In this document: piece after piece, positions 3,662-28,415 of the stretch
Layout: each line of letters begins with the position of its first letter
Position numbering within the stretch: position 1 is the stretch's first letter
Assembly: GCF_000020385.1 (NCBI RefSeq)
Contig: NC_010814.1
Location: forward strand, 1,350,001 to 1,382,000
Direction: 5' to 3'
Source of the DNA: Trichlorobacter lovleyi SZ
GTDB lineage: Bacteria; Desulfobacterota; Desulfuromonadia; Geobacterales; Pseudopelobacteraceae
DNA: 32,000 nt
Notes under the pieces: generated by a model
What the model was told of the DNA's origin: nothing
Database searches by the model: none
The model's input: only the letters and a program-made list of their open reading frames with translations
Made by a program: the position numbers and the translations under genes

Positions 3662-4537
3662 ATGCATCCATTGGCACTGTTGTTAAAGGAACATGAAGGC
3701 TGGCTGGTGCGCCGGGTCAGCGATTATGCTGTCGAGCGGGAGTATAACCGCTATACCTCGCCGCTTGAGGAGGCCTGGCGAGTCTCGGTTGCAGGACTTA
3801 CCGACTCTATCTGCGCCGCCCTGGAGTTGTCATCCGACCCTTGGGAGCTGGGGCCGGATGATGATTTTATGCATGACCCGGTGGCGGCTTTCGGAGTGCA
3901 GGAGGCGCAGAAACATCGCACCCGGGGTGTTACCCTGGAGATGTTTCTCGGGCTGATGAAGTATTACCGTCAGGGGTACCTTGATCTGGTGGCGGCTCAG
4001 CAGGACGAGCCGACGTTACTCAGGCAGTACGCCCGGTTTATTGAGCGGATCTTTGATCGTATCGAGATTGCTTTCTGTGCCGAATGGAGCCGTAGCGATG
4101 CCATGACTTCTGCTATCAGGGATCTGCAGGAGGCAAACCGCCGGATAACCAACGAAAAGAACCAGTTTCTGACTATTTTTGAAAGCCTGCCGATCCCGGT
4201 TTTTCTGTTAAATGACCGTCTGCGGATCAATCAGATGAATCAGGCTGCTTCAAAGCTTTTGTTGAGCAATGAGCGAGCGGGCAGCTATTATTATTCCAGA
4301 CGCAAGACGGACACGCCGTTTCCCTGGTTCGGGCATGAGGTCGGAGAGTTTCTGGCGGCTGATGAAGAGGAGAGGAACTTCTTTGCTACGCTTGCAGCAG
4401 GGAACGGGGAACACCGCTACCGGGTGTCTCTACGCTGGATGCAGGATATCAGCAGGAAGTTTACCGGCATGATCGTTATCATGAACGATATTACTGAACA
4501 GTGGCGGCTTGAACAAAAACAGGAGACAGGTGGATAG
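3662..4537 (+). CDS. Stand-alone sensor protein: N-terminal all-helical RsbR_N (non-haem globin)-like module + PAS domain, no output domain
   Basis: GAGGAGG RBS before ATG 3662. The C-terminal half runs FLTIFESLPIPVFLLNDRLRINQMNQAASKLL...IVIMNDITEQWRLEQ, which is PAS-like and ends where a PAS-HisKA linker normally begins. The N-terminal 150 aa resemble RsbR N-domain helices (assignment from memory). Confidence 0.6.
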   Translation: MHPLALLLKEHEGWLVRRVSDYAVEREYNRYTSPLEEAWRVSVAGLTDSICAALELSSDPWELGPDDDFMHDPVAAFGVQEAQKHRTRGVTLEMFLGLMKYYRQGYLDLVAAQQDEPTLLRQYARFIERIFDRIEIAFCAEWSRSDAMTSAIRDLQEANRRITNEKNQFLTIFESLPIPVFLLNDRLRINQMNQAASKLLLSNERAGSYYYSRRKTDTPFPWFGHEVGEFLAADEEERNFFATLAAGNGEHRYRVSLRWMQDISRKFTGMIVIMNDITEQWRLEQKQETGG

Positions 4538-5456
4538 TGTGCATACAGATGGGTCTGCTGTGTCCCCCCCTTCAACGGGGCGGGTGCTGTTCTTTCTGGT
4601 GCTGACCACGTTTTTCTGGGGCGGCAGTTTTCTCTTTACCAAGATTGGTGTCAGGGAGGTGCCGCCGCCGTTTTTTGTGCTGTTGCGTTTTTCACTGGCC
4701 TCCGTTGTGATGGGACTGCTCTGCCTGCCGCGGCTTGGCCGGCTTAACCGCCAGACTATCCTGCGTGGGACCATCGTTGGTCTGGCACTGGGGATCACCA
4801 ACCTGACCTTTGTGGTTGGGGTGCAGGGAACCAGCATCTCCCGCGCAGGAGTCATCAATAATCTGTTTGTGCTGTTTATTCCGCTCATCGCGAGGATTGC
4901 CTGGAAAGACCGGATCGGCGGCATCAATACCGCAGGAATCGGGCTTGCTTCGCTGGGGATCGCCCTGCTGGCCGGAGGGGGCGGTGAGGGGTTCAACCGT
5001 GGTGATATGATCTCCACCCTGTGTGCCTTCTTTATTGCAATCCATATCATTACGGTTTCCAGGGTCTTGAAGGATGAAGATGTCTGGCTGGTCTCCTTTG
5101 TGCAGTTCTGTGTCGTTGCACTGATGGCTGCAGTGATAACGCTGGTGGTGCCGACGCCACCGTTTTCCCTGGGACTGACCTCCCTTGCTACGATCATCTA
5201 CTGTGCCATCCTGCCAACGGTGGTCTGTTTTACCCTGCAAAACAGGTATCAACGCTATGTGACACCCACCCAGGCCGGTCTGATCTATACCCTGGATCCG
5301 GTCTGGAGCCTCCTGGCAGGTTTTGCGGTTCTGGGTGAACGGCTGACAACGCGGGAGTGGTACGGCTGTGGCTTGATCTTTCTGGCGGTGCTGATCCCGT
5401 TGGGGATCCGTTTTGCAATCGAACGTCGCCTGGTTTTCCGCTACTTGCATCGCTGA
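4530..5456 (+). CDS. EamA/DMT-family transporter (10 TM)
   Basis: Two EamA-like halves with about 10 hydrophobic helices (FFWGGSFLFTKIGV...; YTLDPVWSLLAGFAVLGERL). Start is uncertain: TTG 4509, GTG 4530 or GTG 4539, with AGGAGA at 4521-4526. Confidence 0.8.
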   Translation: MDSVHTDGSAVSPPSTGRVLFFLVLTTFFWGGSFLFTKIGVREVPPPFFVLLRFSLASVVMGLLCLPRLGRLNRQTILRGTIVGLALGITNLTFVVGVQGTSISRAGVINNLFVLFIPLIARIAWKDRIGGINTAGIGLASLGIALLAGGGGEGFNRGDMISTLCAFFIAIHIITVSRVLKDEDVWLVSFVQFCVVALMAAVITLVVPTPPFSLGLTSLATIIYCAILPTVVCFTLQNRYQRYVTPTQAGLIYTLDPVWSLLAGFAVLGERLTTREWYGCGLIFLAVLIPLGIRFAIERRLVFRYLHR

Positions 5457-5557: not shown

Positions 5558-6451
5558 ATGCAGAAGCTGAGTGATGAACAACTGGTTGAAGAACTGAAAT
5601 TCCGCCTGGATCAGAGCCGCAAGTCATTACGGGATCTGTCGATAGTTAATCGTAAGCTGGTTGAACTGAACCATAAACTGGAAGAGTCCGAGGCCCTGAA
5701 AAGTAATTTCCTTTCAAACATACGCAATGAAATCAATAATCCTCTTAACTCCATCATTGGACTGGCCGCGCAACTTGCGGCTATTGTGAAAAGACCCGAG
5801 GTGAGCGAGCTGGTTGCCATGATCTTTTCCGAGGCCTTTCAGCTGGACTTCCAGCTGCGCAACATTTTTATTGCTGCCGAACTGGAGGCCGGTGAGGCGA
5901 TGCCGAGCATAGAACATGTCGAAGTGATCTCAGTTATACGGGGAGTACTGGATAATTTCAGGACTCATGCTGCCGAAAAGCAGGTCTCGGTCAGTTTTTC
6001 TGTTACCGGGGCAGAGGCGGATACCCTGCTGTACTTTCCCACCGATTCCCAGAAACTTCAGGTGATAGTTGCGAATCTGGTGGCTAATGCGGTCGAGTTC
6101 AGCGGTCCGGGCAGCGAAGTAAGGGTGCAGCTTGATCAGACCGAGGGGGGATTGATGATTCAGGTCCAGGATCAGGGGGTTGGTATTGCAGAAGCCGATC
6201 TGAAAAGGATCTTTGACCGTTTTGTGCAGCTGGATAGCGGCCCCACCCGTGCTCACCTCGGCCATGGACTGGGGTTAAGCGTGGTCAAGTCGCTGCTGGA
6301 TCTGCTGCAGGGTGACATACAGGTCAGTAGTACGCCTGCTGTTGGTTCACTCTTTACGGTTATGCTGCCAGCCGCAGCTTACGGGGCTGACGGAATTACC
6401 TTTGCCGAAGGCGGCAACCTGTTCCTGTTCGGGCAGATGGACGAGAAATAG
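5558..6451 (+). CDS. Histidine-kinase-like protein (coiled coil + DHp + HATPase_c) with Asn at the phospho-His position
   Basis: H-box-like FLSNIRNEINNPLNSI compared with the canonical FLANMSHELRTPLNAI. N box (NLVANAVEFS), G1 (DQGVGI), F (IFDRFVQ) and G2 (GHGLGLS) are present. GGGAG RBS precedes ATG 5558. No TM or sensor domain. Confidence 0.8.
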   Translation: MQKLSDEQLVEELKFRLDQSRKSLRDLSIVNRKLVELNHKLEESEALKSNFLSNIRNEINNPLNSIIGLAAQLAAIVKRPEVSELVAMIFSEAFQLDFQLRNIFIAAELEAGEAMPSIEHVEVISVIRGVLDNFRTHAAEKQVSVSFSVTGAEADTLLYFPTDSQKLQVIVANLVANAVEFSGPGSEVRVQLDQTEGGLMIQVQDQGVGIAEADLKRIFDRFVQLDSGPTRAHLGHGLGLSVVKSLLDLLQGDIQVSSTPAVGSLFTVMLPAAAYGADGITFAEGGNLFLFGQMDEK

Positions 6452-6454
6452 CGC

Positions 6455-6940
6455 ATGTCTGAGCAGGACGGATCACCCATACGTAAATACTTTCTCTTTC
6501 CCGGCGCTACCCATGTTGATGCCGAAGAATGCGAGATCACGACCGTTCTGGGATCGTGCGTGGCTGTCTGTCTCTGGGATCAGCGCCATGGCGGGGGGGG
6601 GATGAACCATTTCATGTTGCCGCTCTGGAACGGTGAGGGGTTGGCAACCCCCAAATATGGGTCCATCGCCATGGAGCGTTTGCTGGAGCAGGTGCTGGCT
6701 ATCGGTGCCCGTAAAGAGCATCTGGTTGCAAAGGTCTTTGGTGGAGCAAACCTGCTGTCAACCAGCAGTGCCGCCTGTCCGATCGGTGAGCGGAATATTG
6801 AGCTGGCCATGACACAACTTGAGGAATGGCGGATCGCAGTAGTCGCTACTGATCTGGGTGGCCGGGTCGGGCGTAAGATAATTATGAATACCATGACCGG
6901 TGTGGTGCTTTTGGGGCGGGGCAAGCAGCAAAATCAGTAA
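6455..6940 (+). CDS. cheD: Chemoreceptor glutamine deamidase CheD
   Basis: TTVLGSCVAVCLWD (catalytic Cys region), GGMNHFMLP (His), KVFGGANL and ERNIE motifs. The ATG lies 3 nt after the upstream TAG. Confidence 0.85.
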   Translation: MSEQDGSPIRKYFLFPGATHVDAEECEITTVLGSCVAVCLWDQRHGGGGMNHFMLPLWNGEGLATPKYGSIAMERLLEQVLAIGARKEHLVAKVFGGANLLSTSSAACPIGERNIELAMTQLEEWRIAVVATDLGGRVGRKIIMNTMTGVVLLGRGKQQNQ

Positions 6941-6958
6941 GTAGTTGTTATATGGCGT

Positions 6959-6987
6959 TTGACTTTCGCTGGTTCTTTTCCTAGTAT
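6959..6987 (+). promoter_or_regulatory. Sigma70-like promoter candidate
   Basis: TTGACT (6959-6964), 17-nt spacer, TAGTAT (6982-6987), 42 nt upstream of ATG 7029. Confidence 0.45.
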
Positions 6988-7028
6988 CATTTTTACGTTA
7001 CGCATTAACTTGGGGGCTGGTAACTGCT

Positions 7029-7367
7029 ATGCAGAAGATACCGCTTAACCTGGCAGCCGCCGAAATGGTACTGGCCCGGGACATCTTTAAAAACGACAGT
7101 CCGACCGGTATGCCGATCTGCGGCAAGGGGACTGTGCTTTCAGATTCACTGATCAGCCGTTTGCAGCAGATGGGGGTGCAGTCGCTCTACGTTGAAGGCC
7201 ACCCGGTCTGGCAGGAGGGGGATCGTTGTCTCTCCGAGCAGCTGGCTGACCTTGAAAAGCGGTTCTCCAAGACACTGGATAATCGTCACAATGCGGTCCT
7301 GCTTGATATTTATCGCAATCATCTTACTACAGCGATGGGAGATAACGGTGGACGAACGGAGGAGTGA
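7029..7367 (+). CDS. Small hypothetical protein resembling the N-terminal accessory module of HD-GYP/HD-domain signalling proteins
   Basis: KIPLNLAAAEMVLARDIF.....G.PICGKGTVLSDSLISRLQQMGVQSLYV matches the (pos)L..GM.LA.DI....G..L...G..L....I..L...GI..V.V pattern. Promoter-like element upstream. No enzymatic motif. Confidence 0.55.
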   Translation: MQKIPLNLAAAEMVLARDIFKNDSPTGMPICGKGTVLSDSLISRLQQMGVQSLYVEGHPVWQEGDRCLSEQLADLEKRFSKTLDNRHNAVLLDIYRNHLTTAMGDNGGRTEE

Positions 7368-8202
7368 TCTCAAAAAGATCATCATGGACACCAAGACGCT
7401 GCCAACGCTGCCCGGTGTCATCAATAAGCTGAACTCCCTTTCCAATGACGACAAGTCTTCGGTTCAGGAAATGGCGCGGATTGTCTCTGCTGATCAGGTG
7501 CTGTCAGCCCGGATTCTGCGTTTGGCCAACTCACCGTCCTATGGCTTCTATCGCGTCTCCACCATATCCAATGCCATGATTTTGCTGGGGGTTAACGTGG
7601 TCAAGTCCCTGGCGCTGTCCTCATCCATCTTTGAGATCATGGAAAAAAACAGCGTCGGGCTTTGGGAGCATTCCCTGGGAACTGCCACTGCTGCAGGTAT
7701 CATCGCCCGCAAACTGGCATTGCCGGAGGTTGAGGAAATTACCACTGCCGGTCTGCTGCATGATATCGGCAAGGTGATCATCGGTCTCAAGTGCGCCGAG
7801 CAGATGCCGGAGATCCGGCGCAAGATCAAGCTGGATGAGCTTTTTATCAGCGATGCCGAAAGGGCTGTCCTGGATACGGATCATGCTGAAGTGGGGGGCT
7901 GGCTTTCCAAGAGCTGGTTCCTGCCGGACAAACTTTCCGAGCCGATTGCCTTCCATCATAATGTGAGTGGTTCTGAAGACCATCGGATCAAGACCTCAGT
8001 GGTGCATCTGGCTGATGTGCTGATCAAGGCCAGTGGTTTTGGCGACAGTGGAGACACGTATGTGCCGCCGATCCAGCAGGTCGCCTGGGATGCCTTGAAA
8101 CTGGATGAGGCCCTGCTGCATGAGATGGTAGTGGACCTGGAGGATAAGCTGGTGGAGGTGAAGAACTTCAGTCTTGAGCTTGCCAATGCCGCAGCAGTCT
8201 AG
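7348..8202 (+). CDS. HDOD domain protein
   Basis: LPTLPGVINKL......SSVQEMARIVSADQVLSARILRLANSPSYG and AGLLHDIGKVII motifs. GTG 7348 sits 5 nt after GGGAGA; ATG 7384 is the alternative. The ORF-track start 7192 would overlap the upstream gene by 176 nt. Confidence 0.8.
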   Translation: MDERRSDLKKIIMDTKTLPTLPGVINKLNSLSNDDKSSVQEMARIVSADQVLSARILRLANSPSYGFYRVSTISNAMILLGVNVVKSLALSSSIFEIMEKNSVGLWEHSLGTATAAGIIARKLALPEVEEITTAGLLHDIGKVIIGLKCAEQMPEIRRKIKLDELFISDAERAVLDTDHAEVGGWLSKSWFLPDKLSEPIAFHHNVSGSEDHRIKTSVVHLADVLIKASGFGDSGDTYVPPIQQVAWDALKLDEALLHEMVVDLEDKLVEVKNFSLELANAAAV

Positions 8203-9124
8203 GATTGCCCTCATCTCAAGTCAGATGCAGCTTTCGTCACTGCTGCAGTTGCGCCTGCAAAGCAAGGGCTACCAGGTTATGGTTGTGGAGAAGACCGCGG
8301 CTGCCCTGGGGGCATTTTACTCTGATCCGCCTGACCTGATCATCGTGGATTTTTCCTCACCCTGTGTCGGCTGTCACGATATGCTCTGCATGGTGCGCAG
8401 TGACAGTTTCTTCAGCCCCATTCCCATTATCGGGATTTTTCCCATGGGGACAGAGCAGGAGTCCTGGGACGATTTTCCCCTTGATGACTTTGTGACCACG
8501 CCGGTCAACTTTGCTGAACTGGTCAGCCGGATCACGCTGTCGCTGTCACGCATCAAGCGGATCTTTGATAACAACCCCCTGACCAGATTGCCCGGTAATA
8601 CCTCAATTCACCGTGCCATTGAAGAGTCACTCGGCCTGCCTCTGGCGGTCTGCTACGTTGATATCAATCACTTCAAGCCCTATAATGATGTCTTTGGTTT
8701 TTCCCATGGAGATGAAGTGATCAGGATGTTGGCCAGGATTATGGCGAATGCCGTGCGTGAATCCGGCGGCGGGTTTTGCGGGCATGTGGGGGGGGATGAC
8801 TTTGTGTTTATCGTCCCCCGCGAACGGGCAGAGCCTGTCTGTTCAACTATTATCAGCCATTTTGATCAAATCGTACAGACCCTGTTTGACGAGGATATCA
8901 AGCAGCAGGGCTACTACTTGGCTCTTAACCGTAAGGGCGAGAAGGAACAGATGCCTATTCTGGGAATCTCCATTGCCGTCGTACCAATGGACTCCACTGC
9001 CATCACCCATGCCGCGCGGGTTTCTGAAGTGGCGGCTGAGCTGAAGAAGCTGGCAAAAGGAAAGACGGGGAGTTGTTTTGTGGTGGACAGGCGGTCAGGT
9101 TCGCCGGAATCCGACCAGTTGTAA
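8186..9124 (+). CDS. Degenerate receiver (pseudo-REC) fused to a GGDEF-family domain with a GGDDF motif
   Basis: REC-like fold: IALISSQ / LIIVDF / PIIGIFP / DDFVTTPV. GGDEF-like: NPLTRLPGN, VDINHFKPYNDVFGFSHGDEV, GHVGGDDFVFIV. Start ATG 8186 (TTG 8174 possible) overlaps the HDOD stop. Confidence 0.8.
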   Translation: MPQQSRIALISSQMQLSSLLQLRLQSKGYQVMVVEKTAAALGAFYSDPPDLIIVDFSSPCVGCHDMLCMVRSDSFFSPIPIIGIFPMGTEQESWDDFPLDDFVTTPVNFAELVSRITLSLSRIKRIFDNNPLTRLPGNTSIHRAIEESLGLPLAVCYVDINHFKPYNDVFGFSHGDEVIRMLARIMANAVRESGGGFCGHVGGDDFVFIVPRERAEPVCSTIISHFDQIVQTLFDEDIKQQGYYLALNRKGEKEQMPILGISIAVVPMDSTAITHAARVSEVAAELKKLAKGKTGSCFVVDRRSGSPESDQL

Positions 9125-9157
9125 CATTCTATGAAAGTTGTACAGGGGGTTGTTAAG

Positions 9158-9793
9158 ATGTTCAGAATAATTGCAGTTTCAGTTGCCTTGTTTGCACTGC
9201 TGTTTGTTGCCGGGTGCGGATCATCCCAGGCACCGGCGACACCAACCGGTTTGACGGTTACCGCAACCGGGCCGATTACCTTGAGTTGGACCGCCTCGTC
9301 AGGGGCCTCGAGCTATGTCATATTCCGGGGTACAGCTTCCGGTGCCATCACCACGAAAACCCTTCTGGCAGCCGGTGTCAGCGGAACGAGCTATGCTGAT
9401 TCATCGGCTCTTGCTGGTCCTACTTACTACTATCAGATTACGGCCCTGAATGACGATGGACAGTCAAGCCCATCAACTGAGATAGGTGCCACGCTTACTT
9501 CGTTTACTCTAACCGGGGTTGCTGGCTCTTTGCAGGCTGAGCTGGCTTGGGCTAGCGTCCCTAATGCAACTAGTTATAACGTGTATCGCGGTATGTCTTC
9601 TGGTGATATTTCCGGTAAAACAGTAATACCAGCAGCAGCAGGTCTTACCGGCTTGACCTATATTGATACCTCTGTTACAGCGGGTACCACGTATTACTAT
9701 CAGGTTGAAGCTGTTTATCCTGCTGGGACCACCCCTGTTTACCCTTCAGGAACCCTGGTTTCTAGCGAAGTATCCGTAATACCAAGTAATTGA
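9158..9793 (+). CDS. Lipoprotein with two fibronectin-type-III-like repeats
   Basis: Signal peptide plus lipobox (LLFVAGC). Two about 90-aa repeats each carry L.W......SY.(I/V)(F/Y)RG.(A/S)SG.I....(L/I).....G.(S/T)Y.D.S...G.TYYYQ(I/V).A. ATG 9158 follows GGGGG; ATG 9131 is also possible. Confidence 0.7.
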   Translation: MFRIIAVSVALFALLFVAGCGSSQAPATPTGLTVTATGPITLSWTASSGASSYVIFRGTASGAITTKTLLAAGVSGTSYADSSALAGPTYYYQITALNDDGQSSPSTEIGATLTSFTLTGVAGSLQAELAWASVPNATSYNVYRGMSSGDISGKTVIPAAAGLTGLTYIDTSVTAGTTYYYQVEAVYPAGTTPVYPSGTLVSSEVSVIPSN

Positions 9794-9990: not shown

Positions 9991-10998
9991 TCAGGACTTT
10001 TTATGACACTTGGCGCAGTCACCCTTAACGGAGAAGGCGGTCTTGCCGTCGTGGCAGGCGCCACAGGATTTGCCCTGGGCCATATCAGCCATGGTCATCC
10101 GCTTGCCTCCACCATAAGGGAAGGTTTTGGTGTGGCAGTCAGAACATTTGTACGCAGCGGTATGGAAGTCATGGCTGAAATAGCCGACCACGGTACCGCG
10201 GCTGTTTTTGAAGGTCAGGTTGGCCGGTTTGTAGCCCGCGTGACACTTGTTACAGTCACCGGTTGAAGCGAAGGCGGTTTTGCCATCGTGGCAGCTTCCG
10301 CAGGACTTGCCTTTCGCCATGTCAGCCATACTGGCTTTACGGGAGCCTTGGCGATAGTCGTACTTCTTGGTGTGACAGTCGCCGCACTTGTAGGCCTGTA
10401 CGTGGAAGTCATGACTGAATACCGCATCATTAACAGGCTTTGACTTGTATTTAAGAGTCTTTGTGGCCAGACCGCGGTGGCAGGAACCGCAGTTTGCAGC
10501 GGCAGTAAAAGCGGTTTTTCCATTGTGGCATGAACCGCAGGATTTACCTTTTTCCATTTCGGCCATGCTGACACCACGGCGGATCGGACCACCTTTGTGA
10601 CAGCTCTTGCAGCCGAACCCTTTGCCGTTGACGTGTGAGTCATGGCTGAACACGGCGTTGCCGGCAGGGATACGATAGGTAATGGCGCTGGGGGTACCGC
10701 GGTGGCATTTACTGCAGTCTTTTTCAACAGCGACACTGAAAGCCTTCTTGCCGTTGTGGCAGGCTCCGCAGGAAAGTCCCTTCTCCATTTCCGCCATGGA
10801 ATAGGAACGCTTCTTGGAAAGATTGAAAATTGCGCTGTGGCAGGTCTTGCAGTCTTTGTTCTTTGCAAGGTGTGTGTCGTGGCTGAAGACAACGGCTGGA
10901 GCGTTCTTGAAACTGAACCTGATGTCCTTGGCCTGCACGGAGACAGCCATAAGCATGACCATAGCCGCTGCAAAGAAGGTAATAATGCGCCTGTTCAT
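9991..10998 (-). CDS. Periplasmic dodecahaem c-type cytochrome, polymer of four c7-type trihaem modules (GSU1996-like)
   Basis: 12 CXXCH motifs (C50, 77, 95, 130, 154, 170, 205, 233, 249, 285, 312, 328). Signal peptide ends VQA/KD. The FSHD.H motif recurs at residues 38, 117, 194 and 274. AAGGGGGA RBS. Confidence 0.9.
   Translation of the reverse strand: MNRRIITFFAAAMVMLMAVSVQAKDIRFSFKNAPAVVFSHDTHLAKNKDCKTCHSAIFNLSKKRSYSMAEMEKGLSCGACHNGKKAFSVAVEKDCSKCHRGTPSAITYRIPAGNAVFSHDSHVNGKGFGCKSCHKGGPIRRGVSMAEMEKGKSCGSCHNGKTAFTAAANCGSCHRGLATKTLKYKSKPVNDAVFSHDFHVQAYKCGDCHTKKYDYRQGSRKASMADMAKGKSCGSCHDGKTAFASTGDCNKCHAGYKPANLTFKNSRGTVVGYFSHDFHTAAYKCSDCHTKTFPYGGGKRMTMADMAQGKSCGACHDGKTAFSVKGDCAKCHKKS
9994..10920 (-). 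repeat. Four tandem, diverged intragenic repeats of about 235-240 bp (one trihaem module each)
   Basis: Recurring DNA blocks on the plus strand: gtcatggctgaaatagcc (~10169), gtcatgactgaataccgc (~10408), gtcatggctgaacacggc (~10639), gtcgtggctgaagacaac (~10876). Protein periodicity is 77-80 aa. Confidence 0.75.
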
Positions 10999-11066: not shown

Positions 11067-11186
11067 TTGATAATTGTATACAGTTGTCATACACCCTTGA
11101 TGCTCCTTAAAAACCAGTTTGAATGCGGTTGCGGGGGTGGGTGAGGTGTGGTATACAAACATCCAATTTCCATGACGGGACGAGGT

Positions 11187-12014
11187 ATGATGCTGACCCT
11201 TGACGATATTATTAAAAATGCCCTGCGGGAGGATATTCACACCGGGGATCTGACCACCCAGGCCGTGGTTCCTGAGCCACGGCCTGCCACGGCCCGTCTG
11301 GTTGCCAAGGAGCCCTTGACCGTAGCCGGTATGGCGGTGGCAGCCCGGGTTTTTGGTTTGCTTGATGCAAGCATTGTCTTTGAATTCTGCTGTCAGGATG
11401 GTCAGATCCTTGAAGAGGGGACTGTTCTGGCCCGGATCTCAGGTGATGCATCCCAATTGCTGCAGGGGGAGCGGGTGGCCTTGAATCTGCTGCAGCGGAT
11501 GTCGGGTATTGCGACGTTGACCTCAAGCTATGTGCAAGCGGTTAAAGGCACCGGGGCACGCATTGTTGATACCCGCAAGACAACACCCGGTTTGCGGGTG
11601 CTTGAAAAGTATGCCGTGAGGGTTGGTGGTGGGATCAATCATCGCACCGGTCTGTATGATGGTATCCTGATCAAAGAAAATCATATTGCAGCTGCCGGGG
11701 GGATTACCGAGGCGATTCGTCGGGCGCGTGCCTATATTCCCCATACGCTGAAGATCGAGATTGAAACCGAGACGGTTGAGCAGGTGCAGGAAGCCCTGGC
11801 TGCCGGTGCTGACATCATCATGCTGGACAATATGGATTGTGAGACCATGCGTCACTGCGTTGGGTTGATCAACGGCCAGGCGTTGGTTGAGGCCTCGGGC
11901 GGTGTCAACCTGACCACGGTCCGGGCCATTGCCGAGACCGGTGTTGATATCATTTCAATTGGGGCCCTGACCCATTCCCCGCGTGCCATGGATATCTCCA
12001 TGCTACTGGATTAA
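11187..12014 (+). CDS. nadC: Nicotinate-nucleotide pyrophosphorylase (carboxylating)
   Basis: ALREDI.TGDLTT, ERVALNLLQRMSGIAT, DTRKTTPGLR..EKYAV..GGG.NHR and IMLDNM motifs. Start is ambiguous (ATG 11172, 11187 or 11190; GTG 11148). Confidence 0.9.
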   Translation: MMLTLDDIIKNALREDIHTGDLTTQAVVPEPRPATARLVAKEPLTVAGMAVAARVFGLLDASIVFEFCCQDGQILEEGTVLARISGDASQLLQGERVALNLLQRMSGIATLTSSYVQAVKGTGARIVDTRKTTPGLRVLEKYAVRVGGGINHRTGLYDGILIKENHIAAAGGITEAIRRARAYIPHTLKIEIETETVEQVQEALAAGADIIMLDNMDCETMRHCVGLINGQALVEASGGVNLTTVRAIAETGVDIISIGALTHSPRAMDISMLLD

Positions 12015-12019
12015 GCAAT

Positions 12020-13006
12020 ATGCCGCGCCGTATGATATCGTCTGAACTGCTGAAGTTGTTGCGGGCCGGCGGTGATGGCGTTGTATCGGGAGAACAGCTC
12101 AGCCGTGAACTGGGGGTCTCGCGCACGGCGATCTGGAAACAAATTTCAGCTCTGAGGGTAGCCGGATACCGGATAGAGGCCGTCCCCTCGCAGGGGTACT
12201 GCTTGCTTGCGGAGCCTGATCTGCTGGATCAACAGGCGATACGGGCCGGCCTGGCGAGTGGCTGCCTGTTGGGACGTCGGCTTGTCTGCTGTTCAGAAAC
12301 CGCCTCTACCAACAGTGATGCCTTCCACTTGGCTGAAGAGGGGGCCGAGGAGGGGACGGTGGTGCTGGCAGACCGTCAGTTGGCCGGCAAAGGGCGCCTT
12401 GGCAGGCGCTGGGAATCTCCTGCCGGCGTTAACCTCTACTGTTCAGTGGTCTTGCGCCCTGAACTTCCGCCCTATGAGGCACCACAACTGACCTTTCTCT
12501 CTGCAGTGGCGGTTGCCCGAGCCATTCACACAAGCACCGGCCTGCAGCCGGTCATCAAATGGCCCAATGATCTGTTGCTGAACGGTCGCAAGGTTGCCGG
12601 GTTGTTGAACGAAATGAATGCCGAGACTGATCGGGTCGGCTTTGTGATCCTGGGGATCGGGGTTAACCTGAATATGCGGGAGGATCAGTTTCCTCCCGAT
12701 CTACGTTCTCCAGCCACCTCTCTGCTGCTTGAGACCGGTTCAGCGGTCGTCCGCCAGGCCTTTGCCGTTAATCTGTTGCGTGAGCTTGAACGGGAATACC
12801 TCCGGTTTACACAGAACGGTTTTGGGCCGGTACGCGAGGACTGGACCCGCTACTGTAACGCCTTTGGACGTGAAGTGCGAGTGGAAATGGGGCCACACAC
12901 CTTGCAAGGGCCTTTTGCCGGCATTGATCATGACGGCGCCTTGTTGATGACGTTACCGGATGGACGGATTGAGCGGATACTGAGTGGTGATGTGACGGTT
13001 ATCTGA
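12020..13006 (+). CDS. birA: Bifunctional biotin-[acetyl-CoA-carboxylase] ligase / biotin operon repressor
   Basis: N-terminal winged HTH (SGEQLSRELGVSRTAIWKQISALRVAGYRIEA) and biotin-binding loop GKGRLGRRWESP, followed by KWPNDLL..GRKVAGLL. Confidence 0.9.
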   Translation: MPRRMISSELLKLLRAGGDGVVSGEQLSRELGVSRTAIWKQISALRVAGYRIEAVPSQGYCLLAEPDLLDQQAIRAGLASGCLLGRRLVCCSETASTNSDAFHLAEEGAEEGTVVLADRQLAGKGRLGRRWESPAGVNLYCSVVLRPELPPYEAPQLTFLSAVAVARAIHTSTGLQPVIKWPNDLLLNGRKVAGLLNEMNAETDRVGFVILGIGVNLNMREDQFPPDLRSPATSLLLETGSAVVRQAFAVNLLRELEREYLRFTQNGFGPVREDWTRYCNAFGREVRVEMGPHTLQGPFAGIDHDGALLMTLPDGRIERILSGDVTVI

Positions 13007-13030
13007 GCAGGACGGAGAAAGGAGAGGCGT

Positions 13031-13795
13031 TTGCTCCTCGTTATAGATGTTGGCAACAGCAATATTGTACTGGGTATCTACGACGGTGAACTGCTGGTGC
13101 GCCACTGGCGTATCTCGACTGATAAGTCCCGTACTTCAGATGAATACGGGGTCATGCTGAACAGCCTTTTCTCGCTGGCATCCCTGTCCTTTTCTCAGGT
13201 TAAGGCGATTATCATCTCCTCGGTGGTCCCGCCTCTTACCGGTGTGCTTGAATCACTCTGCCGCGATTTTTTTGCGCTGCCTCCCTATGTAGTCGGTCCC
13301 GGCATCAAGACCGGCATGCAGATTCAGTATGATAATCCCCGTGAGGTCGGGGCTGACCGGGTTGTCAATGCGGTGGCCGGTTTTGAAAAACACCGCAGCC
13401 CTTTGATCATTGTCGATTTTGGTACTGCCACTACCTTTGATTATGTGAACAGTAAGGGAGAATACTGCGGAGGTGCCATTGCACCTGGCCTAGCCATCTC
13501 GCTGGAGGCTCTGTTCCAGCGTGCCAGCAAACTGCCGCGGGTGGATATCTGTCGTCCCCCCCATGCCATAGCCAAAAATACGGTCAACTCAATGCAGGCT
13601 GGTATTTTTTACGGGTATGTGGGATTGGTGGATGGTATCGTGGAGCGGATCAAGCTGGAGAGCCGGGATCAGCCACGGGTGCTTGCCACCGGCGGTCTGG
13701 CAGCCCTGATTGCACCTGAATCAAAAACCATTGATGAAGTTGATGAATTTCTTACTCTGGAGGGGTTGAGGATTTTGTACGAACGGAACCGGTAG
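13031..13795 (+). CDS. coaX: Type III pantothenate kinase
   Basis: [30 protein letters not shown] and ATGGLA motifs. TTG start follows AGGAGAGG. Confidence 0.9.
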
Positions 13796-13843
13796 CTTAT
13801 GAAAGTTGTCATGCACCTATCAACGTAGACAAGGAGGCAGCGC

Positions 13844-15928
13844 ATGGGGACGTATCCAACGGAGAAGATTCGTAATCTGGGCATTGTGGCACACGGTGGG
13901 GCCGGTAAGACCTCGCTGGCTGAGGCGATCCTGTTCAATACCGGCATGATCGACCGGCTGGGGCGGGTTGATGACGGTACCGCCACCATGGATTTTGAGC
14001 CTGAAGAGACCAAACGCAAGATTTCAATCTCGTCGGCCTTTGACCACTGCGAGTGGAACGGTCATTCGATTCACTTTGTTGATACCCCCGGCTACGGTGA
14101 TTTTATCGGTGATACCCGTGCCTGTATGCGTGCCCTGGATTGTGCCGTGGTGATCCTTTCAGCCATTTCAGGGGTTAAGGTTCAGACGGAAGAGGTCTGG
14201 GAATGGGCGAACGAATTTGAGATCCCCCGCATCGCCTTTGTCAACAAGATGGACAAGGAACGGGCCAACTTCCTGCGCGCTATCGACGATATGGAGAAGA
14301 GTCTCAAGGCGCGCGGTGTGGCGATCCAGATGCCGATCGGTGCTGAGGAGTCCTTTGAGGGAGTGGTTGACCTGATCCGGATGAAGGCCTGCAAGTACGC
14401 CAAGGATGGCTCGGGCGGCTGTCAGGAGATCGAGATTCCGGCTGAGTATCTTGCTGAGGCCCAGCGCCTGCGGGAGCATATGGTTGAGATCGTGGCTGAG
14501 GCCTACGACGCTCTGACCGAAAAGTATCTGGAGGCCGGCGAGCTGACTGAAGAGGAGATCCTTGACGGCCTGCGGGTCGGTACCATGCGTAACACCTTCA
14601 CCCCGGTACTGTGCGGCTCTGCCACCCTGAACGTTGGAGTACGGCAGCTGTTGGGTGCTGTCTGCGACTTCCTGCCGTCTCCGCTGGATCGGACCAAGGC
14701 GGTTGGCACCAATCCTAAAAACAATGATCTGGTGGAACGTGGGCCGGATGAAAAAGAGCCGTTTTCGGCGCTGGTGTTCAAGACCACTTCTGACCCCTAT
14801 ACCGGTAAGATCACCATCTTCCGGATCTATTCAGGCACCCTTAACTCCGACTCTACCATCTATAATGCCAGTAAAGGGGTGGAGGAACGGATCGGCCAGA
14901 TCTATGAGCTGGAAGGTAAAAAACAGAAGCCGCTCAAGCAGGCCTTTGCCGGCGACATTGTGGCGGTTGCAAAATTGAAGGAAACCGTGACCGGTGATAC
15001 GCTTTGTGATCCGGCTCATCCGGTTGTCTATGAGCCGGCCAGACAGCTGTTGCCGGTGATCTCCTATGCGATTGAGCCGAAAACCAAGGCGGATGAAGAC
15101 AAGATCCATAATGCCCTGCACCGGCTGATCGAAGAGGAACCGACCCTGGAATCCCATCGTGATCCCCAGACCAAAGAGTTCATCATCTCAGGTCTTGGTC
15201 AGGTTCACCTGGATGTGATAGTTGAAAAATTGAAACGCAAATTCAATGTGGATGTGGTACTGAAGACTCCCAAGGTTCCCTATTTTGAAACCATCCGTGG
15301 GACTGCCAAGGTGCAGGGCAAGTACAAGAAACAATCGGGCGGTCGTGGTCAGTACGGTGACTGCTGGATTGAGATGAGCCCCACCGGGCGTGGCGATGGC
15401 TACATCTTTGAAGACAAGGTTGTGGGTGGCGTAGTCCCCCGTCAGTACATTCCTGCCGTTGATAAAGGGATTCAGGAGGCCGCTCTTGAGGGTTTCCTGG
15501 CAGGATACCCGGTGGTGGACTTCAAGGTGGCCCTATATGACGGCTCCTTCCATACGGTTGATTCTTCTGAGATGGCCTTCAAGGTCGCCGGTTCACTGGC
15601 CTTTAAAAAGGCGATGGAACAATGTAAGCCGGTGTTGCTGGAGCCGATCGTCAATCTGGCCGTGACAGTGCCCGATGAAAATATGGGGGACGTGATTGGT
15701 GACCTCAACTCCCGTCGTGGCAAGGTGGTTGGTGTTGAACCCAAGGCAAACTCCCAGACAATCAAGGCGGTGGTCCCGATGTCAGAGGTGCTGGCCTACT
15801 CCAACGACCTGAAGTTCATGACCAGCGACCGTGGCTTGTTCAGTACCGAATTTTCGCACTATGAAGAAGTGCCGACCCATATGGCACAAAAAGTTATTGC
15901 TGAAGCGCAGGCGGCAAAGAAGGATTAA
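13844..15928 (+). CDS. fusA: Elongation factor G paralogue (EF-G II type)
   Basis: Full five-domain EF-G length (694 aa). G1 AHGGAGKTS, G3 DTPGYGDF, G4 NKMD, domain IV/V blocks (KKQSGGRGQYGD, HTVDSSEMAF). It lies outside the str operon. AAGGAGG RBS. Confidence 0.9.
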   Translation: MGTYPTEKIRNLGIVAHGGAGKTSLAEAILFNTGMIDRLGRVDDGTATMDFEPEETKRKISISSAFDHCEWNGHSIHFVDTPGYGDFIGDTRACMRALDCAVVILSAISGVKVQTEEVWEWANEFEIPRIAFVNKMDKERANFLRAIDDMEKSLKARGVAIQMPIGAEESFEGVVDLIRMKACKYAKDGSGGCQEIEIPAEYLAEAQRLREHMVEIVAEAYDALTEKYLEAGELTEEEILDGLRVGTMRNTFTPVLCGSATLNVGVRQLLGAVCDFLPSPLDRTKAVGTNPKNNDLVERGPDEKEPFSALVFKTTSDPYTGKITIFRIYSGTLNSDSTIYNASKGVEERIGQIYELEGKKQKPLKQAFAGDIVAVAKLKETVTGDTLCDPAHPVVYEPARQLLPVISYAIEPKTKADEDKIHNALHRLIEEEPTLESHRDPQTKEFIISGLGQVHLDVIVEKLKRKFNVDVVLKTPKVPYFETIRGTAKVQGKYKKQSGGRGQYGDCWIEMSPTGRGDGYIFEDKVVGGVVPRQYIPAVDKGIQEAALEGFLAGYPVVDFKVALYDGSFHTVDSSEMAFKVAGSLAFKKAMEQCKPVLLEPIVNLAVTVPDENMGDVIGDLNSRRGKVVGVEPKANSQTIKAVVPMSEVLAYSNDLKFMTSDRGLFSTEFSHYEEVPTHMAQKVIAEAQAAKKD

Positions 15929-17035: not shown

Positions 17036-17956
17036 GTGTCTGAGCCGGTCAAGATAAATATCCCGGCATCTGTGGCAGCGTTTGTGCGGCCGGGGACGCC
17101 ATTACAGGAACGTTTGCGGGGGGCTGGAGGTGCTGTTGACCTCCCCCCGCGTGAACTGCTGTTGCTGCTTTTCTGTCTTGGCAAGGATACTGATCAGGAG
17201 GTGTGTACACGTGCAACCTCCAGCATGGCCTCATTGCCCCCGGGCCTGATATGTGCTGCCCTTGAAGGCGGTGAGTATCATCCGGCTGTCCTGCATGCTT
17301 TGGCCTTGAACCGTGGAGCAACCACCGAGATCAGGACTGCCCTGTTGGAACGGCCCGAACTGTCTGATGTGACGCGGGAGCTTCTACAGACGTTTCATAC
17401 GGCTGTGTCCGAACCGGAAGAGATCGGAGCTGCAGGGACGGATGTCGGCGGGCTTCCTTTGGATGATGAGGAGTTGCTTCCTGATGAGCAGTTTACCGAA
17501 TCTGAGCATGATCAGGAAGCTGAACCGGGTGAATCGGATGAAGAATATCTGAGTAAATACCAGTTGGCCCAGGAGATGGGAATTGGCGAAAAGATCAAGA
17601 TGGCGCTGACCGGTGACAAGGAATGGCGCAAAATTCTGGTTAAGGATGCCAACAAGCTGGTGAGCGCCGGGGTGCTTAAGAATCCACGGATGTCCGAGCC
17701 GGAGGTCTTGACGCTCTTGAAGTCCGGGGTACAGAACGATGAGATCATGCGGCTGATCTGTGCCAACAAGGAATGGGTGAAAAACTACCAGATCCGTAAG
17801 GCGCTGATAGAAAATCCAAAGACTCCCTTGGCTAATGCACTGCGTTATCTGGGTACCATGAATGAAAAGGATGTTGCCGGTTACGCCAAAAGCCGCAATA
17901 TTTCTTCCGTGGTATCAACCCAGGCCAAACGGATGCTGCTGAATAAAAAACGCTAG
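17036..17956 (+). CDS. Hypothetical helical-repeat protein (HEAT/leucine-rich-variant-like NPxxP repeats) with an acidic linker
   Basis: GTG 17036 sits 5 nt after GGAGG. Repeats of the type LKNPRMSEPEVLTLLKS / LIENPKTPLANALRYLG. Acidic stretch DDEELLPDEQFTESEHDQEAEPGESDEEY. No catalytic motif recognised. Confidence 0.55.
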   Translation: MSEPVKINIPASVAAFVRPGTPLQERLRGAGGAVDLPPRELLLLLFCLGKDTDQEVCTRATSSMASLPPGLICAALEGGEYHPAVLHALALNRGATTEIRTALLERPELSDVTRELLQTFHTAVSEPEEIGAAGTDVGGLPLDDEELLPDEQFTESEHDQEAEPGESDEEYLSKYQLAQEMGIGEKIKMALTGDKEWRKILVKDANKLVSAGVLKNPRMSEPEVLTLLKSGVQNDEIMRLICANKEWVKNYQIRKALIENPKTPLANALRYLGTMNEKDVAGYAKSRNISSVVSTQAKRMLLNKKR

Positions 17957-17980: not shown

Positions 17981-18793
17981 ATGGCGGTTATTAATCACGC
18001 AAAGCGTGAAATAAATGCGAAAATTGTCTATTTTGGTTCCCCTGGCTGTGGCAAGGGGGCGCTGTTTCAGTTTATACATCAGAGAATCAAGCCAAGCCTG
18101 TGCGGGCCGCTCAAGTCGATGCCTGCCGGTCAGGACTCGTTACTTTTCTTTGACTATATCCCGTTTGAAGCCTCCAGTCTGGATGGTTATCGTATCCGTT
18201 TTCATCTCTATACCATGACCGGTCCGGTTGCCAACCCGGGGACCTGGAAGATGACCTTGAAGGGGGTTGACGGAATTGCCCTTGTAACAAACGGGAGAGC
18301 ATCCGGCCATGATGCGGTTGACAGTCTGCGAGTCTTAAAATCAATGTTGGCCGGTTACGGTAGAGATTTGCGCAGTCTGCCCCGAATCTGGCTCCCAACT
18401 GATCTTTCTGATAGCGGCGATGCCGGCTCTGAACTCATGACCTGTTTTGATACAAGCCGTACGGTCGTCTGCTCGACGACAAACGGTGAAGGGGTGTTGC
18501 AGGGTCTGGCAGTGCTTTCCCAGGAGGTGTTACAGGGGCTGCGGGATGAGTACGAGCCGGCACGTGAGCCTGCTATTACTTCAATGCTGCCGGTTGAACC
18601 GCCTGATGAGCTGTTCGCAGATTCCGGCCAGGGCGCGCCACTTCAGTCATTTAAATCAGTTGTGCTGCCTGAACTCAAGGTGTCTCTGGCAGGGAATACA
18701 ACAGTCACCATCCCCTTGTCCATTCAGCTTGGAGACTCTGTTAAACGCTGTAACCTGCGTTTTTCAGTTCAGCTTGAAGAAGAGTCGTTATGA
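17981..18793 (+). CDS. MglA-family Ras-like small GTPase homologue with degenerate nucleotide motifs and a ~110-aa C-terminal extension
   Basis: INHAKREINAKIVYFGSPGCGKG....I and RFHLYTMTGPV...K.TLKGVDGI align with M. xanthus MglA [24 protein letters not shown] and RFHLYTVPGQV...KLILKGVDGV (MglA sequence recalled from memory). Confidence 0.7.
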   Translation: MAVINHAKREINAKIVYFGSPGCGKGALFQFIHQRIKPSLCGPLKSMPAGQDSLLFFDYIPFEASSLDGYRIRFHLYTMTGPVANPGTWKMTLKGVDGIALVTNGRASGHDAVDSLRVLKSMLAGYGRDLRSLPRIWLPTDLSDSGDAGSELMTCFDTSRTVVCSTTNGEGVLQGLAVLSQEVLQGLRDEYEPAREPAITSMLPVEPPDELFADSGQGAPLQSFKSVVLPELKVSLAGNTTVTIPLSIQLGDSVKRCNLRFSVQLEEESL

Positions 18794-26339: not shown

Positions 26340-26415
26340 GCTGGCGTAGCTCAATTGGTAGAGCAGCTGACTTGTAATCAGCAGGTTGCGGGTTCGAGTC
26401 CCATCGCCAGCTCCA
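26340..26415 (+). tRNA. tRNA-Thr (anticodon UGU)
   Basis: Acceptor GCTGGCG/CGCCAGC. Anticodon stem GCTGA/TCAGC with loop CTTGTAA. GGTTCGAGTCC T-arm. Encoded CCA. Confidence 0.95.
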
Positions 26416-26443
26416 GTCAAGCAATATAAGCAGTATCATCCCT

Positions 26444-26528
26444 GGAGGGATTCCCGAGCGGCCAAAGGGAACAGACTGTAAATCTGTCGTCGTAGACTTC
26501 GGAGGTTCGAATCCTCCTCCCTCCACCA
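26444..26528 (+). tRNA. tRNA-Tyr (anticodon GUA), long variable arm
   Basis: Acceptor GGAGGGA/TCCCTCC. Anticodon loop CTGTAAA. Long variable arm (CGTCGTAGACTTCG). GGTTCGAATCC T-arm. Encoded CCA. Confidence 0.95.
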
Positions 26529-26637
26529 TACAAGTTCACCGGCTACGATAGGTGGCCCGGATCCAGGAGGCAGATTTATTGTCGCATGAACTGGTCAAGG
26601 GTTCGTTTAGGGTGGCCAAAGCAGTGCATACCGTTGT

Positions 26638-26714
26638 GCGGGAGTAGCTCAGTTGGCTAGAGCATCAGCCTTCCAAGCTGAGGGTCGCGGGTTCGAGTCC
26701 CGTTTCCCGCTCCA
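26638..26714 (+). tRNA. tRNA-Gly (anticodon UCC)
   Basis: Acceptor GCGGGAG/TTCCCGC. Anticodon stem TCAGC/GCTGA with loop CTTCCAA. GGTTCGAGTCC T-arm. Encoded CCA. Confidence 0.95.
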
Positions 26715-26736
26715 ATCTTCATGATATTCGTGAAAT

Positions 26737-26812
<76 letters not shown>

Positions 26813-26904: not shown

Positions 26905-28095
26905 ATGGCCAAGGCTAAATTTGAGCGTAATAAGACGCACGTAAACATCGGAACAATTGGTCACGTTGACCATGGTAAGACCACATTGACCGCAGCGATC
27001 ACGAAGGTGCTTGCTGGCAAGGGTCAGGCCGAATACAAGGCGTTTGATCAGATTGACAACGCCCCTGAAGAGCGTGAGCGTGGTATCACCATTGCTACTG
27101 CCCACGTTGAATATGAGACCGACAAGCGCCACTATGCTCACGTCGACTGCCCTGGTCACGCTGACTACGTCAAGAACATGATCACCGGTGCAGCACAGAT
27201 GGACGGTGCCATTCTGGTTGTATCTGCAGCAGACGGCCCGATGCCCCAGACTCGCGAGCACATCCTGCTTGCCCGTCAGGTAGGCGTACCTTATATTGTT
27301 GTCTTCCTGAACAAGGCAGACATGGTCGACGACGCTGAGCTGCTTGAGCTGGTTGAACTGGAAATCCGTGAACTGCTTTCCAGCTACGACTTCCCGGGTG
27401 ACGATATTCCAATCATCAAAGGTTCTGCTCTGAAGGCCCTCAACGGCGACAAGGACGAGCTGGGCGAAGACTCAGTCAATGCACTGATGGAGGCTGTTGA
27501 CAGCTACATCCCGGATCCTGAGCGTGCTATTGACCGTCCGTTCCTGATGCCGGTAGAAGACGTCTTCTCCATCTCCGGTCGTGGTACTGTTGCCACCGGT
27601 CGTGTTGAGCGCGGTATTGTAAAGGTTGGCGAAGAAATCGAAATCGTCGGCATCAAAGCCACCGCCAAGACCACCGTAACCGGTGTAGAAATGTTCCGCA
27701 AGCTGCTTGACCAAGGTCAGGCTGGCGACAACATCGGCGCCCTGCTGCGTGGTGTTAAGCGTGAAGACATCGAGCGTGGTCAGGTGCTTGCCAAGCCCGG
27801 CAGCATCACTCCGCACACCAAGTTCAAGGCAGAAGCCTACATTCTCACCAAAGAAGAAGGTGGTCGTCACACCCCATTCTTTAACGGCTATCGTCCGCAG
27901 TTCTACTTCCGCACCACTGACGTAACCGGTGTGGCTGAGCTGCCTGCGGGCACCGAGATGGTAATGCCTGGTGACAACATTGCCATGACCGTAAACCTGA
28001 TCACCCCGATCGCCATGGACGAAGGTCTTCGCTTCGCCATCCGTGAAGGTGGTCGTACCGTAGGCGCCGGCGTCGTCAGCGCAATTATCGAGTAA
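26905..28095 (+). CDS. tuf: Elongation factor Tu
   Basis: [36 protein letters not shown] and NKADMV motifs over the full 396 aa. GGAGGG RBS. Confidence 0.98.
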
Positions 28096-28338: not shown

Positions 28339-28415
28339 AGGCCAGTAGCTCTAATTGGTAGAGCGCCGGTCTCCAAAACCGGATGTTGGGGGTTCGAATC
28401 CCTCCTGGCCTGCCA
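28339..28415 (+). tRNA. tRNA-Trp (anticodon CCA)
   Basis: Acceptor AGGCCAG/CTGGCCT. Anticodon stem CCGGT/ACCGG with loop CTCCAAA. GGTTCGAATCC T-arm. Encoded CCA. Confidence 0.95.

Follow-up and report, generated by a model that had tools for sequence, protein, structure and literature searches.

How five adjacent signalling genes could pass on a signal when residues needed for phosphotransfer are missing from their products is the question raised by a 32,000-nucleotide stretch of the genome of Trichlorobacter (formerly Geobacter) lovleyi, referred to here as the window. The genes are co-directional, occupy positions 5558-9124, and encode a kinase-like protein with Asn at the phospho-His column (named HKN here), a CheD protein, a small protein, an HDOD protein, and a pseudo-receiver joined to a GGDEF-fold domain whose signature motif reads GGDDF. 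Pseudo-kinases and pseudo-receivers are common in bacteria, and their workings are mostly unknown. The first-pass annotation of the window treated the five genes as a single cassette from which the canonical phosphotransfer residues were systematically absent, and did not find a described pathway onto which it could be mapped.

Based on comparison with related loci, we favour a different description. It recognises two signalling modules, each conserved in its own right and each incompetent for phosphotransfer, which have become neighbours in Trichlorobacter and in a small number of other Geobacterales. HKN and cheD make up module A, and the small protein, the HDOD protein and the pseudo-receiver-GGDDF protein make up module B (the triad). 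Every one of the proteins falls within a known superfamily and lacks one or more of the catalytic features that define its family.

Surveys and sequence comparison

A profile of the cyclase was searched against one genome per species, giving 532 loci, the best 80 of which were compared; these belong to the Geobacterales, Nitrospirota, Acidobacteriota and Desulfobacterales. A second search, with an HKN profile against metagenomes, gave 80 further loci. Labels such as L003, L082 and L114 denote individual loci from the two surveys. The order of HKN and cheD was judged in the 66 loci with enough sequence, and the wider context in 32 well-flanked loci. Conservation was counted in alignments of the fetched loci (91 sequences of HKN, 75 of CheD, 92 of the HDOD protein and 92 of the receiver/cyclase) and in the 120 top homologues. 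Domains were called from Pfam and NCBIfam profiles, and residue columns were assigned by alignment to solved kinases, PleD and the structure 3HC1. A literature search for a CheD/pseudo-kinase pair or an HDOD-GGDEF-Geobacter system returned nothing specific, and neither the HKN-CheD pair nor the triad was found described in any paper.

Two conserved blocks of genes

The small open reading frame (ORF), the HDOD gene and the cyclase gene are neighbours, in a fixed order, in 79 of the best 80 loci, the remaining one (L028) being cut off upstream of the HDOD gene. In module A, cheD lies directly 3' of HKN in 66/66 loci, and the two form an obligate gene pair. The blocks themselves adjoin each other in 9 of the 80 triad loci only, the triad usually being found without module A. 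The expected five-gene synteny was thus recovered within each block, but not across the two, and the notion of one cassette was given up in favour of two separately conserved units. The border between them, backed by synteny, falls in the 88-nt gap that separates cheD from the small ORF. This gap carries the sequence TTGACT-17-TAGTAT, the promoter-like element which had been noted before the small ORF; the match is to the consensus only and, as the scan returned 10 sites of this kind where 4.1 were expected, the site at 6959-6987 alone is weak evidence.

It was considered whether the five genes might nonetheless act as one pathway, in which HKN docks on the pseudo-receiver without phosphotransfer and CheD, the HDOD protein and the small protein modulate the complex. 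The genes are tightly packed and share a direction, about 25 loci, those of Oryzomonas and Geobacter sp. FeAm09 among them, repeat this order and fall into two separate clades of the HKN tree, and HKN-CheD is recurrently found beside HDOD or cyclic di-GMP (c-di-GMP) genes. However, 70 of the 79 complete triad loci have no HKN-CheD nearby, at least 30 HKN-CheD loci lie in chemotaxis (che) clusters without a triad, and the 88-nt gap with its promoter-like site separates the blocks. The HKN surface is, moreover, identical in both contexts. A comparison of che-type with triad-type sequences, aimed at context-specific residues, showed none, no conserved HKN column differing between the two; relocation beside the triad has therefore left the HKN surface unadjusted, and this makes a dedicated partnership between HKN and the pseudo-receiver less likely. 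The substitutions in the pseudo-receiver are likewise the same with or without an adjacent HKN. We regard a single pathway as unlikely and the two-module description as the better one, with the reservation that adjacency in about 25 loci and two clades could mean a real functional coupling which that description underplays.

The missing phosphotransfer residues are a conserved design and not decay, since orthologues share the substitutions and the features are held in dozens to hundreds of independent sequences. Orthologues with His, DD and Lys in the relevant columns were sought as a sign of recent decay; the orthologues carry the same substitutions instead. Decay toward pseudogenes, for which nothing beyond the departures from consensus speaks, would also have to be reconciled with intact ORFs, with fixation of identical substitutions in hundreds of sequences from several phyla, and with a mean column identity of 64-75% among which the neighbouring motifs are invariant; its probability is practically nil, and pseudogene formation was ruled out. 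With the phosphotransfer residues missing by conserved design, the suggestion that these proteins signal through protein contacts, nucleotide binding, deamidation or a cyclic nucleotide, and not through a phosphorelay, is a reasonable one.

The histidine-less kinase-like protein

HKN is a soluble protein of about 297 amino acids composed of an N-terminal coiled coil, a DHp domain and a catalytic domain, with no sensor domain; Pfam matches were obtained to HisKA (5e-7) and HATPase_c (1.4e-28). Its H-box, FLSNIRNEINNPL, aligns with FLANMSHEIRTPL of a solved kinase, which places Asn57 (codon 5726-5728) at the phospho-His. Asn stands in this column in 90 of the 91 fetched-locus sequences and in 120/120 top homologues. 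Because Asn occupies the position, HKN is predicted to be incapable of autophosphorylation on His. The H-box is invariant and departs from the consensus only at His to Asn and at the usual Arg-Thr, which is Asn-Asn. Glu+1 is kept in 89/91 sequences and Asn+4 (Asn61) in 87/91, while Pro+5 is strictly retained. The ATP-binding boxes are intact, with N177, D205/G207/G209, F219/F222 and G235/G237/G239 invariant. The annotated combination of Asn for the phospho-His with an intact ATP-binding domain was thus upheld by both the profile search and the alignment to solved kinases. In terms of the HisKA family, the kinase feature (the phospho-acceptor His) is absent, the phosphatase feature (Thr or Asn at His+4) is present as Asn61, and HATPase_c is present with its N, G1, F and G2 boxes.

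Conservation is at least 95% throughout the two DHp helices, and the first of them has an unusual abundance of Asn (N50, N54, N57, N60, N61 and N64). The protein ends in a conserved tail of the form EGGNLFLFxxMxEK, encoded at 6395-6448 of the window, where the last ~14 residues read EGGNLFLFGQMDEK; Gly-Asn, two Phe and one Glu are invariant family-wide. By its sequence this tail looks like a docking peptide.

Two precedents bear on the function of such a protein. In HisKA proteins phosphatase activity, and it alone, depends on the Thr/Asn at +4, and kinase activity depends on the Glu at +1, the His being dispensable for the phosphatase (PMC3510030), and the H139N form of NRII is a phosphatase only (bioRxiv 10.1101/122606). 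HKN resembles NtrB/NRII H139N, CrdS H371A, the EnvZ His mutants and DivL in having no phospho-acceptor His, the exchange being the same His-to-Asn as in NRII H139N, and it keeps the +4 Asn and the ATP-binding domain as do the phosphatase-competent His mutants. Unlike the laboratory mutants, it is a natural invariant family without a sensor domain, always accompanied by CheD and carrying a conserved C-terminal tail. Based on these motifs, HKN would bind a Che receiver protein (CheY, CheB or CheV) as a kinase-dead phosphatase or adaptor. Some observations speak against a phosphatase. The role is inferred from motif retention only; in PleC H610A the loss of the His abolishes phosphatase activity too (PMC3510030); and a review of pseudo-kinases concludes that phosphatase activity does not explain them in general (PMC12632262).

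The other possibility suggested by the ATP-binding boxes, which are invariant despite the lack of a phosphoryl acceptor, is that HKN is a DivL-type ATP-binding scaffold or pseudo-kinase, neither kinase nor phosphatase, which reads a receiver or CheD and relays a conformational signal. Pseudo-histidine kinases are a recognised, though rare, class (0.9% of HisKA domains have no His; PMC12632262), and the docking-peptide-like tail would suit such a role. The strict retention of Glu+1, Asn+4 and Pro+5, on the other hand, goes beyond what a scaffold would seem to need, although a binding surface could conserve these residues as well. On present evidence we hold the pure scaffold to be rather unlikely.

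CheD and its chemotaxis-operon setting in relatives

The CheD protein was recognised by Pfam (6e-26), with every NCBIfam equivalog score under its cut-off. The catalytic-type residues Thr30, Cys35 and His52 are invariant in 75/75 sequences. Among the 32 well-flanked HKN-CheD loci, at least 13 lie in a che cluster; the triad is located downstream in 12, and the other 7 show neither arrangement. The usual order in the che operons is CheA-MCP-CheW-CheR-(second CheD)-CheB or CheV-HKN-CheD, a setting confirmed in the relatives by called genes with Pfam matches. CheV or CheB is located immediately upstream of HKN in these clusters; in L114 the CheV gene and the start of HKN share 4 nt, and in L134 CheY genes are found upstream of CheA. 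HKN-CheD is, in the relatives, a component of chemotaxis-type operons, and the statement that the genes map onto no described pathway does not stand for this pair. No che domain (CheA, CheW, MCP) was found among the scanned ORFs of the T. lovleyi window, whereas such domains are present in the HKN-CheD loci of relatives.

In a neighbour-joining tree of HKN the che-embedded forms are basal and widespread, and the triad-adjacent forms fall in two Geobacterales clades. The widespread, and probably ancestral, home of HKN-CheD is the 3' part of chemotaxis-type operons. The tree carries no support values and leaves the number of relocations uncertain, which tempers this conclusion.

A second, divergent CheD (~34% identical) was observed between CheR and CheB in L084, L100, L101, L114, L126, L134 and L159. 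Many HKN-bearing che operons have such a second gene, and the CheD that accompanies HKN may accordingly be a paralogue with a specialised role.

The closest parallel to module A is the CheC-CheD pair of Bacillus subtilis and Thermotoga maritima, which combines a phosphatase of phosphorylated CheY (CheY-P) with a receptor deamidase. In both cases a CheD with intact catalytic residues stands beside a fixed partner in che operons. By analogy HKN could supply the phosphatase function, for no genes for CheC, CheX or CheZ were seen in the HKN-bearing che clusters examined; the absence of CheC and CheX was judged from cluster fragments and not from whole genomes, which detracts from the argument. The activity or availability of HKN would then be set by binding of CheD, as in the CheC partnership with CheD in Bacillus and Thermotoga. 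Unlike CheC, the partner of CheD here is a HisKA/HATPase_c protein with an ATP-binding domain and not a protein of the CheC fold.

CheD being the sole constant neighbour of HKN (66/66), HKN might instead be a substrate of CheD or a receptor mimic, its DHp four-helix bundle imitating a chemoreceptor, so that CheD deamidates a conserved Asn or Gln or is held away from the receptors. The ladder of conserved Asn residues on DHp helix 1 fits this proposal, as does the second, divergent CheD which many che clusters would have available for the receptors. Chao et al. in 2006 reportedly found that CheC binds CheD through receptor mimicry. Yet the receptor deamidation consensus was not seen in HKN on inspection by eye, and CheD is known as a Gln deamidase and not an Asn deamidase. 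The proposal is judged quite improbable, more so than the scaffold.

The pseudo-receiver-GGDDF protein

The third triad protein is 99% identical to a protein recorded under the name of T. lovleyi. Its AlphaFold model (predicted local distance difference test, pLDDT, 81) consists of a receiver, a helical linker and a GGDEF domain, the closest structures being WspR, DgcR and PleD. The receiver scored 19.1 against the Pfam cut-off of 30.2 for Response_reg (1.6e-3), and its model superposes on the receivers of PhoB and MtrA (template modelling score ~0.85, root-mean-square deviation ~2.1 Å) with a (beta-alpha)5 fold. When aligned to PleD, it shows SS for the acidic DD pair, F for the conserved Thr and T for the conserved Lys, exactly as had been read from the sequence of the window. 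Across the family the acidic pair is mostly Ser/Thr, the Lys column mostly Leu/Thr and the Thr column hydrophobic. The phospho-acceptor Asp is present (D55 in IIVDF) and is kept in 81/92 homologues as the sole retained member of the catalytic quintet. The claim that canonical phosphotransfer residues are systematically absent is accordingly right for the His of HKN and for the DD, Thr and Lys of the receiver, but not for the acceptor Asp. Because it has neither the Mg-binding acidic pair nor the switch residues, the pseudo-receiver is predicted not to be switchable by phosphorylation. It probably serves as a dimerisation or docking domain.

The GGDEF domain was detected by Pfam at 1e-13, with profile positions 29-110 of 161 aligned, that is, the central part only. 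GGDDF replaces GG[DE]EF in 119/120 homologues. At the site of the RxxD inhibitory motif (I-site) there is RESG with a 2-residue insertion, the fourth position being Gly in 83/92; both motif readings agree with the first-pass annotation. The metal-binding Asp (D159) and the guanine-reading N167 and D176 (in HGDEV) are each kept in 90/92. The Ser typical of Hypr enzymes (GacA Ser348) is absent, Asp176 standing there in 90/92.

A GGDDF motif in a GGDEF domain of the Geobacterales, with no EAL or HD-GYP partner domain, is also found in GSU1937, a HAMP-GGDDF 'Hypr' cyclase of G. sulfurreducens (PMC8835794). A fusion of the GGDDF domain of GSU1937 to the GacA receiver produced both cyclic GMP-AMP (cGAMP) and c-di-GMP, an activity that a GADDF mutant lacked (PMC8835794). 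GSU1937 differs in having HAMP and transmembrane parts, in carrying Ser where the base is read, and in being a cGAMP synthase; the present protein has a pseudo-receiver and Asp, with GTP as predicted substrate. An orthologous relationship between the two was ruled out on these grounds. Since the guanine-reading Asn and Asp are kept and GGDDF is active elsewhere, the most likely product of the triad, as far as these residues allow it to be predicted, would be c-di-GMP.

The GGDDF domain may, however, bind nucleotide rather than make a cyclic product, because two Arg positions of PleD are replaced (by an invariant His before GGDDF, and by Ser/Asn for the Arg of GRN) and Pfam aligns only the central part of the profile. 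Taken further, the domain could be catalytically dead and the triad a nucleotide or c-di-GMP receptor or adaptor complex. The motif does depart from GG[DE]EF, degenerate GGDEF domains such as that of PA3258 are usually inactive (PMC8835794), and full-length GSU1937 was inactive in E. coli, all of which counts against an active enzyme. A dead domain is harder to square with the invariance of the substrate-binding and metal columns, with the full GGDEF fold predicted, and with the activity recorded for the GGDDF domain of GSU1937; the loss of the I-site would also make the usual allosteric binding of c-di-GMP impossible. We consider inactivity doubtful, though less so than the other alternatives discussed here, and retain an active cyclase as the likelier case. 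A weak Pfam hint of a Cas10-like palm (E=0.009) was dismissed, all top fold matches being diguanylate cyclases.

In its architecture of receiver, helical linker and GGDEF domain, and in its fold, the protein is like WspR, PleD and the Leptospira DgcR. It is unlike them in lacking the DD, Thr and Lys of the receiver, in its GGDDF motif and in having no I-site. The link of che-type genes with c-di-GMP enzymes, seen here through genome context, recalls the Wsp-type systems, from which the T. lovleyi window differs in having no CheA, CheW or MCP.

The HDOD protein and the small protein

The structure closest to the HDOD protein is 3HC1 of G. sulfurreducens (E=3.6e-29; ~30-35% alike over the core), in which two irons are bound by five His and one Asp (PMC12075610). 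The protein of the window shares the fold and the full set of ligand-type residues, and its ligand columns align with those of 3HC1, of which it is not an orthologue. His96, His126, Asp127, His167, His191 and His192 are invariant in 91-92 of 92 sequences. By analogy with the adaptor SadB, a role as partner or adaptor in c-di-GMP-related regulation is plausible, with the difference that SadB has no metal ligands and carries a YbaK domain (PMC12075610).

The small protein is modelled (pLDDT 78) as an N-terminal beta module of ~55 amino acids followed by two helices. A profile search of 1.8 billion representatives returned 351 cluster representatives of its family, nearly all stand-alone proteins of ~100-130 amino acids. 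The beta module gave weak fold matches to insert modules of the RNA polymerase beta/beta' subunits and to a MoeA domain (E 0.016-0.4). One of 20 family members matched DUF3391 (E=0.0055), the window protein itself giving no match. Its description as similar to the N-terminal part of HD-GYP proteins is therefore plausible, with weak support, and is not established; neither clear membership in DUF3391 nor fusion to HD-GYP proteins was borne out, the family being almost only stand-alone and the Pfam support marginal.

To our knowledge, no HDOD protein has been reported in a fixed triad with a cyclase. Control of a GGDEF enzyme by a small partner, instead of by phosphorylation of its own receiver, has a possible analogue in SiaC-SiaD, where the partners are unrelated in sequence to those of the triad and control runs through phosphorylation of SiaC.

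Proposed mechanism and significance

Because the receiver has no Mg-binding acidic pair and no Thr/Lys switch residues, the cyclase domain would be controlled by contacts with the HDOD protein and the small adaptor, and not by phosphorylation. The metal pocket of the HDOD protein, with its complete ligand set, is the likely input site. Taken together, the conserved residues make the triad probably a phosphorylation-independent cyclic-dinucleotide synthase run through the HDOD metal site. Directly 3' of the triad, some loci carry a PilZ, a canonical REC-GGDEF or a second HDOD gene, neighbours which fit a role in c-di-GMP signalling.

Genes of the same kind recur beside module A. An EAL-HDOD gene ends the HKN-bearing che cluster in L082, L083, L100, L134 and L159, and a REC-PilZ gene follows HKN-CheD in L144 and L152. 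This recurrence suggests a functional tie of HKN-CheD to c-di-GMP signalling, and not an obligate five-gene unit. The repeated placement of HKN-CheD beside c-di-GMP-type genes further suggests that module A may feed into module B in T. lovleyi. The most far-reaching version of this idea is that HKN-CheD is an unrecognised chemosensory accessory unit, in which HKN replaces CheC as partner of CheD and as phosphatase or adaptor, and which couples receptor arrays to c-di-GMP turnover via HDOD-containing enzymes; in Trichlorobacter it would have left the che operon to control the GGDDF triad directly. In this full form we think the idea has a small chance of being right.

The region offers two widely conserved test cases, in one place, for the function of pseudo-kinases and pseudo-receivers. 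The constant association of HKN with CheD provides a testable idea for signal termination in che pathways lacking CheC, CheX and CheZ, and a lead on roles of CheD beyond receptor deamidation. Through the triad, the HDOD domain could be assigned a function, namely to act as input to, or partner for, a cyclic-dinucleotide synthase; the evidence for active GGDDF enzymes would also be extended. Both modules occur in the Geobacterales, metal reducers whose growth on surfaces and electrodes is under the control of c-di-GMP and cGAMP.

Gene layout and neighbourhood

The coordinates of the five genes and of adjoining features are collected in Table 1. The packing and common direction given by the first-pass annotation were confirmed, as were the short step from the HKN stop codon to the cheD start and the overlaps within the triad. 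The start of the HDOD gene is most likely GTG 7348, judging from the conservation of this codon and the next 12 (VDxxRxELKKII) across many loci; it follows that the gene overlaps the small ORF by 20 nt. The overlap of the HDOD and REC-GGDEF genes is 17 nt. The triad is translationally coupled.

Table 1. Features of the five-gene region of T. lovleyi (positions in the window)
Feature	Position	Strand	Remarks
HKN (kinase-like gene)	5558..6451	+	ATG 5558, TAG 6449-6451; 297 aa
cheD	6455..6940	+	ATG 6455, 3 nt past the HKN stop; 161 aa
Promoter-like element TTGACT-17-TAGTAT	6959..6987	+	Consensus match only; in the cheD/small ORF gap
Small ORF (first triad gene)	7029..7367	+	112 aa; no Pfam or NCBIfam match
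HDOD gene	7348..8202	+	GTG start; 284 aa; Pfam HDOD 4e-57
REC-GGDEF gene (pseudo-receiver, helical linker, GGDEF-fold)	8186..9124	+	ATG 8186; GGDDF 8789-8803
Fibronectin-III-like lipoprotein gene	9131..9793	+	6 nt past the stop of the GGDDF gene; fn3 5e-5, under the Pfam cut-off

Upstream of the region, a gene for a PAS-only protein (3662-4537, +) ends where a HisKA domain would begin, and overlaps an EamA transporter gene (4509-5456, +) by 29 nt. The NCBIfam PnpS matches of the PAS protein (35-170) and of HKN (163-390) abut. The PAS protein had been annotated as a stand-alone sensor next to the cassette; it is such a neighbour in T. lovleyi, but not outside the Trichlorobacter clade, to which the PAS-EamA pair beside HKN is confined. 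A split kinase interrupted by EamA was set aside on account of this distribution and of the generic nature of the PAS plus HisKA layout. The upstream neighbours of the triad vary between loci. About 3.5 kb upstream of the five genes lies a canonical full-length GGDEF diguanylate cyclase gene (1269-2057, -; Pfam 1.8e-47), so that a second c-di-GMP synthase, of the ordinary kind, is encoded in the neighbourhood; other Trichlorobacter loci likewise have a related gene upstream.

The lipoprotein-like gene directly downstream of the triad (9131-9793, +) encodes two fibronectin-III-like repeats and was found only in the close Trichlorobacter relatives L003, L006, L087, L088 and L158. It may be co-transcribed with the triad here as a lineage-specific addition outside the conserved unit. 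A search with the PADLOC defence-system models gave generic ATPase and HD-domain matches only, and an anti-phage defence system was set aside.

Further downstream are a gene for a multihaem c-type cytochrome (9991-10998, -) and then nadC, birA, coaX (type III pantothenate kinase) and an EF-G paralogue (11148-15928, +), a block conserved downstream of the triad in ~20-30 Geobacterales loci. Two ORFs on the + strand, at 17036-17956 (306 aa) and 17981-18793 (270 aa), between SPOR-domain and MgtC-family genes, matched no Pfam profile at E<=1e-5. A tRNA cluster (Thr, Tyr, Gly, Thr) at 26340-26812 precedes the EF-Tu gene (26905-28095), which is followed by tRNA-Trp (28339-28415); this is the usual layout of the tuf region and is unrelated to the signalling modules.

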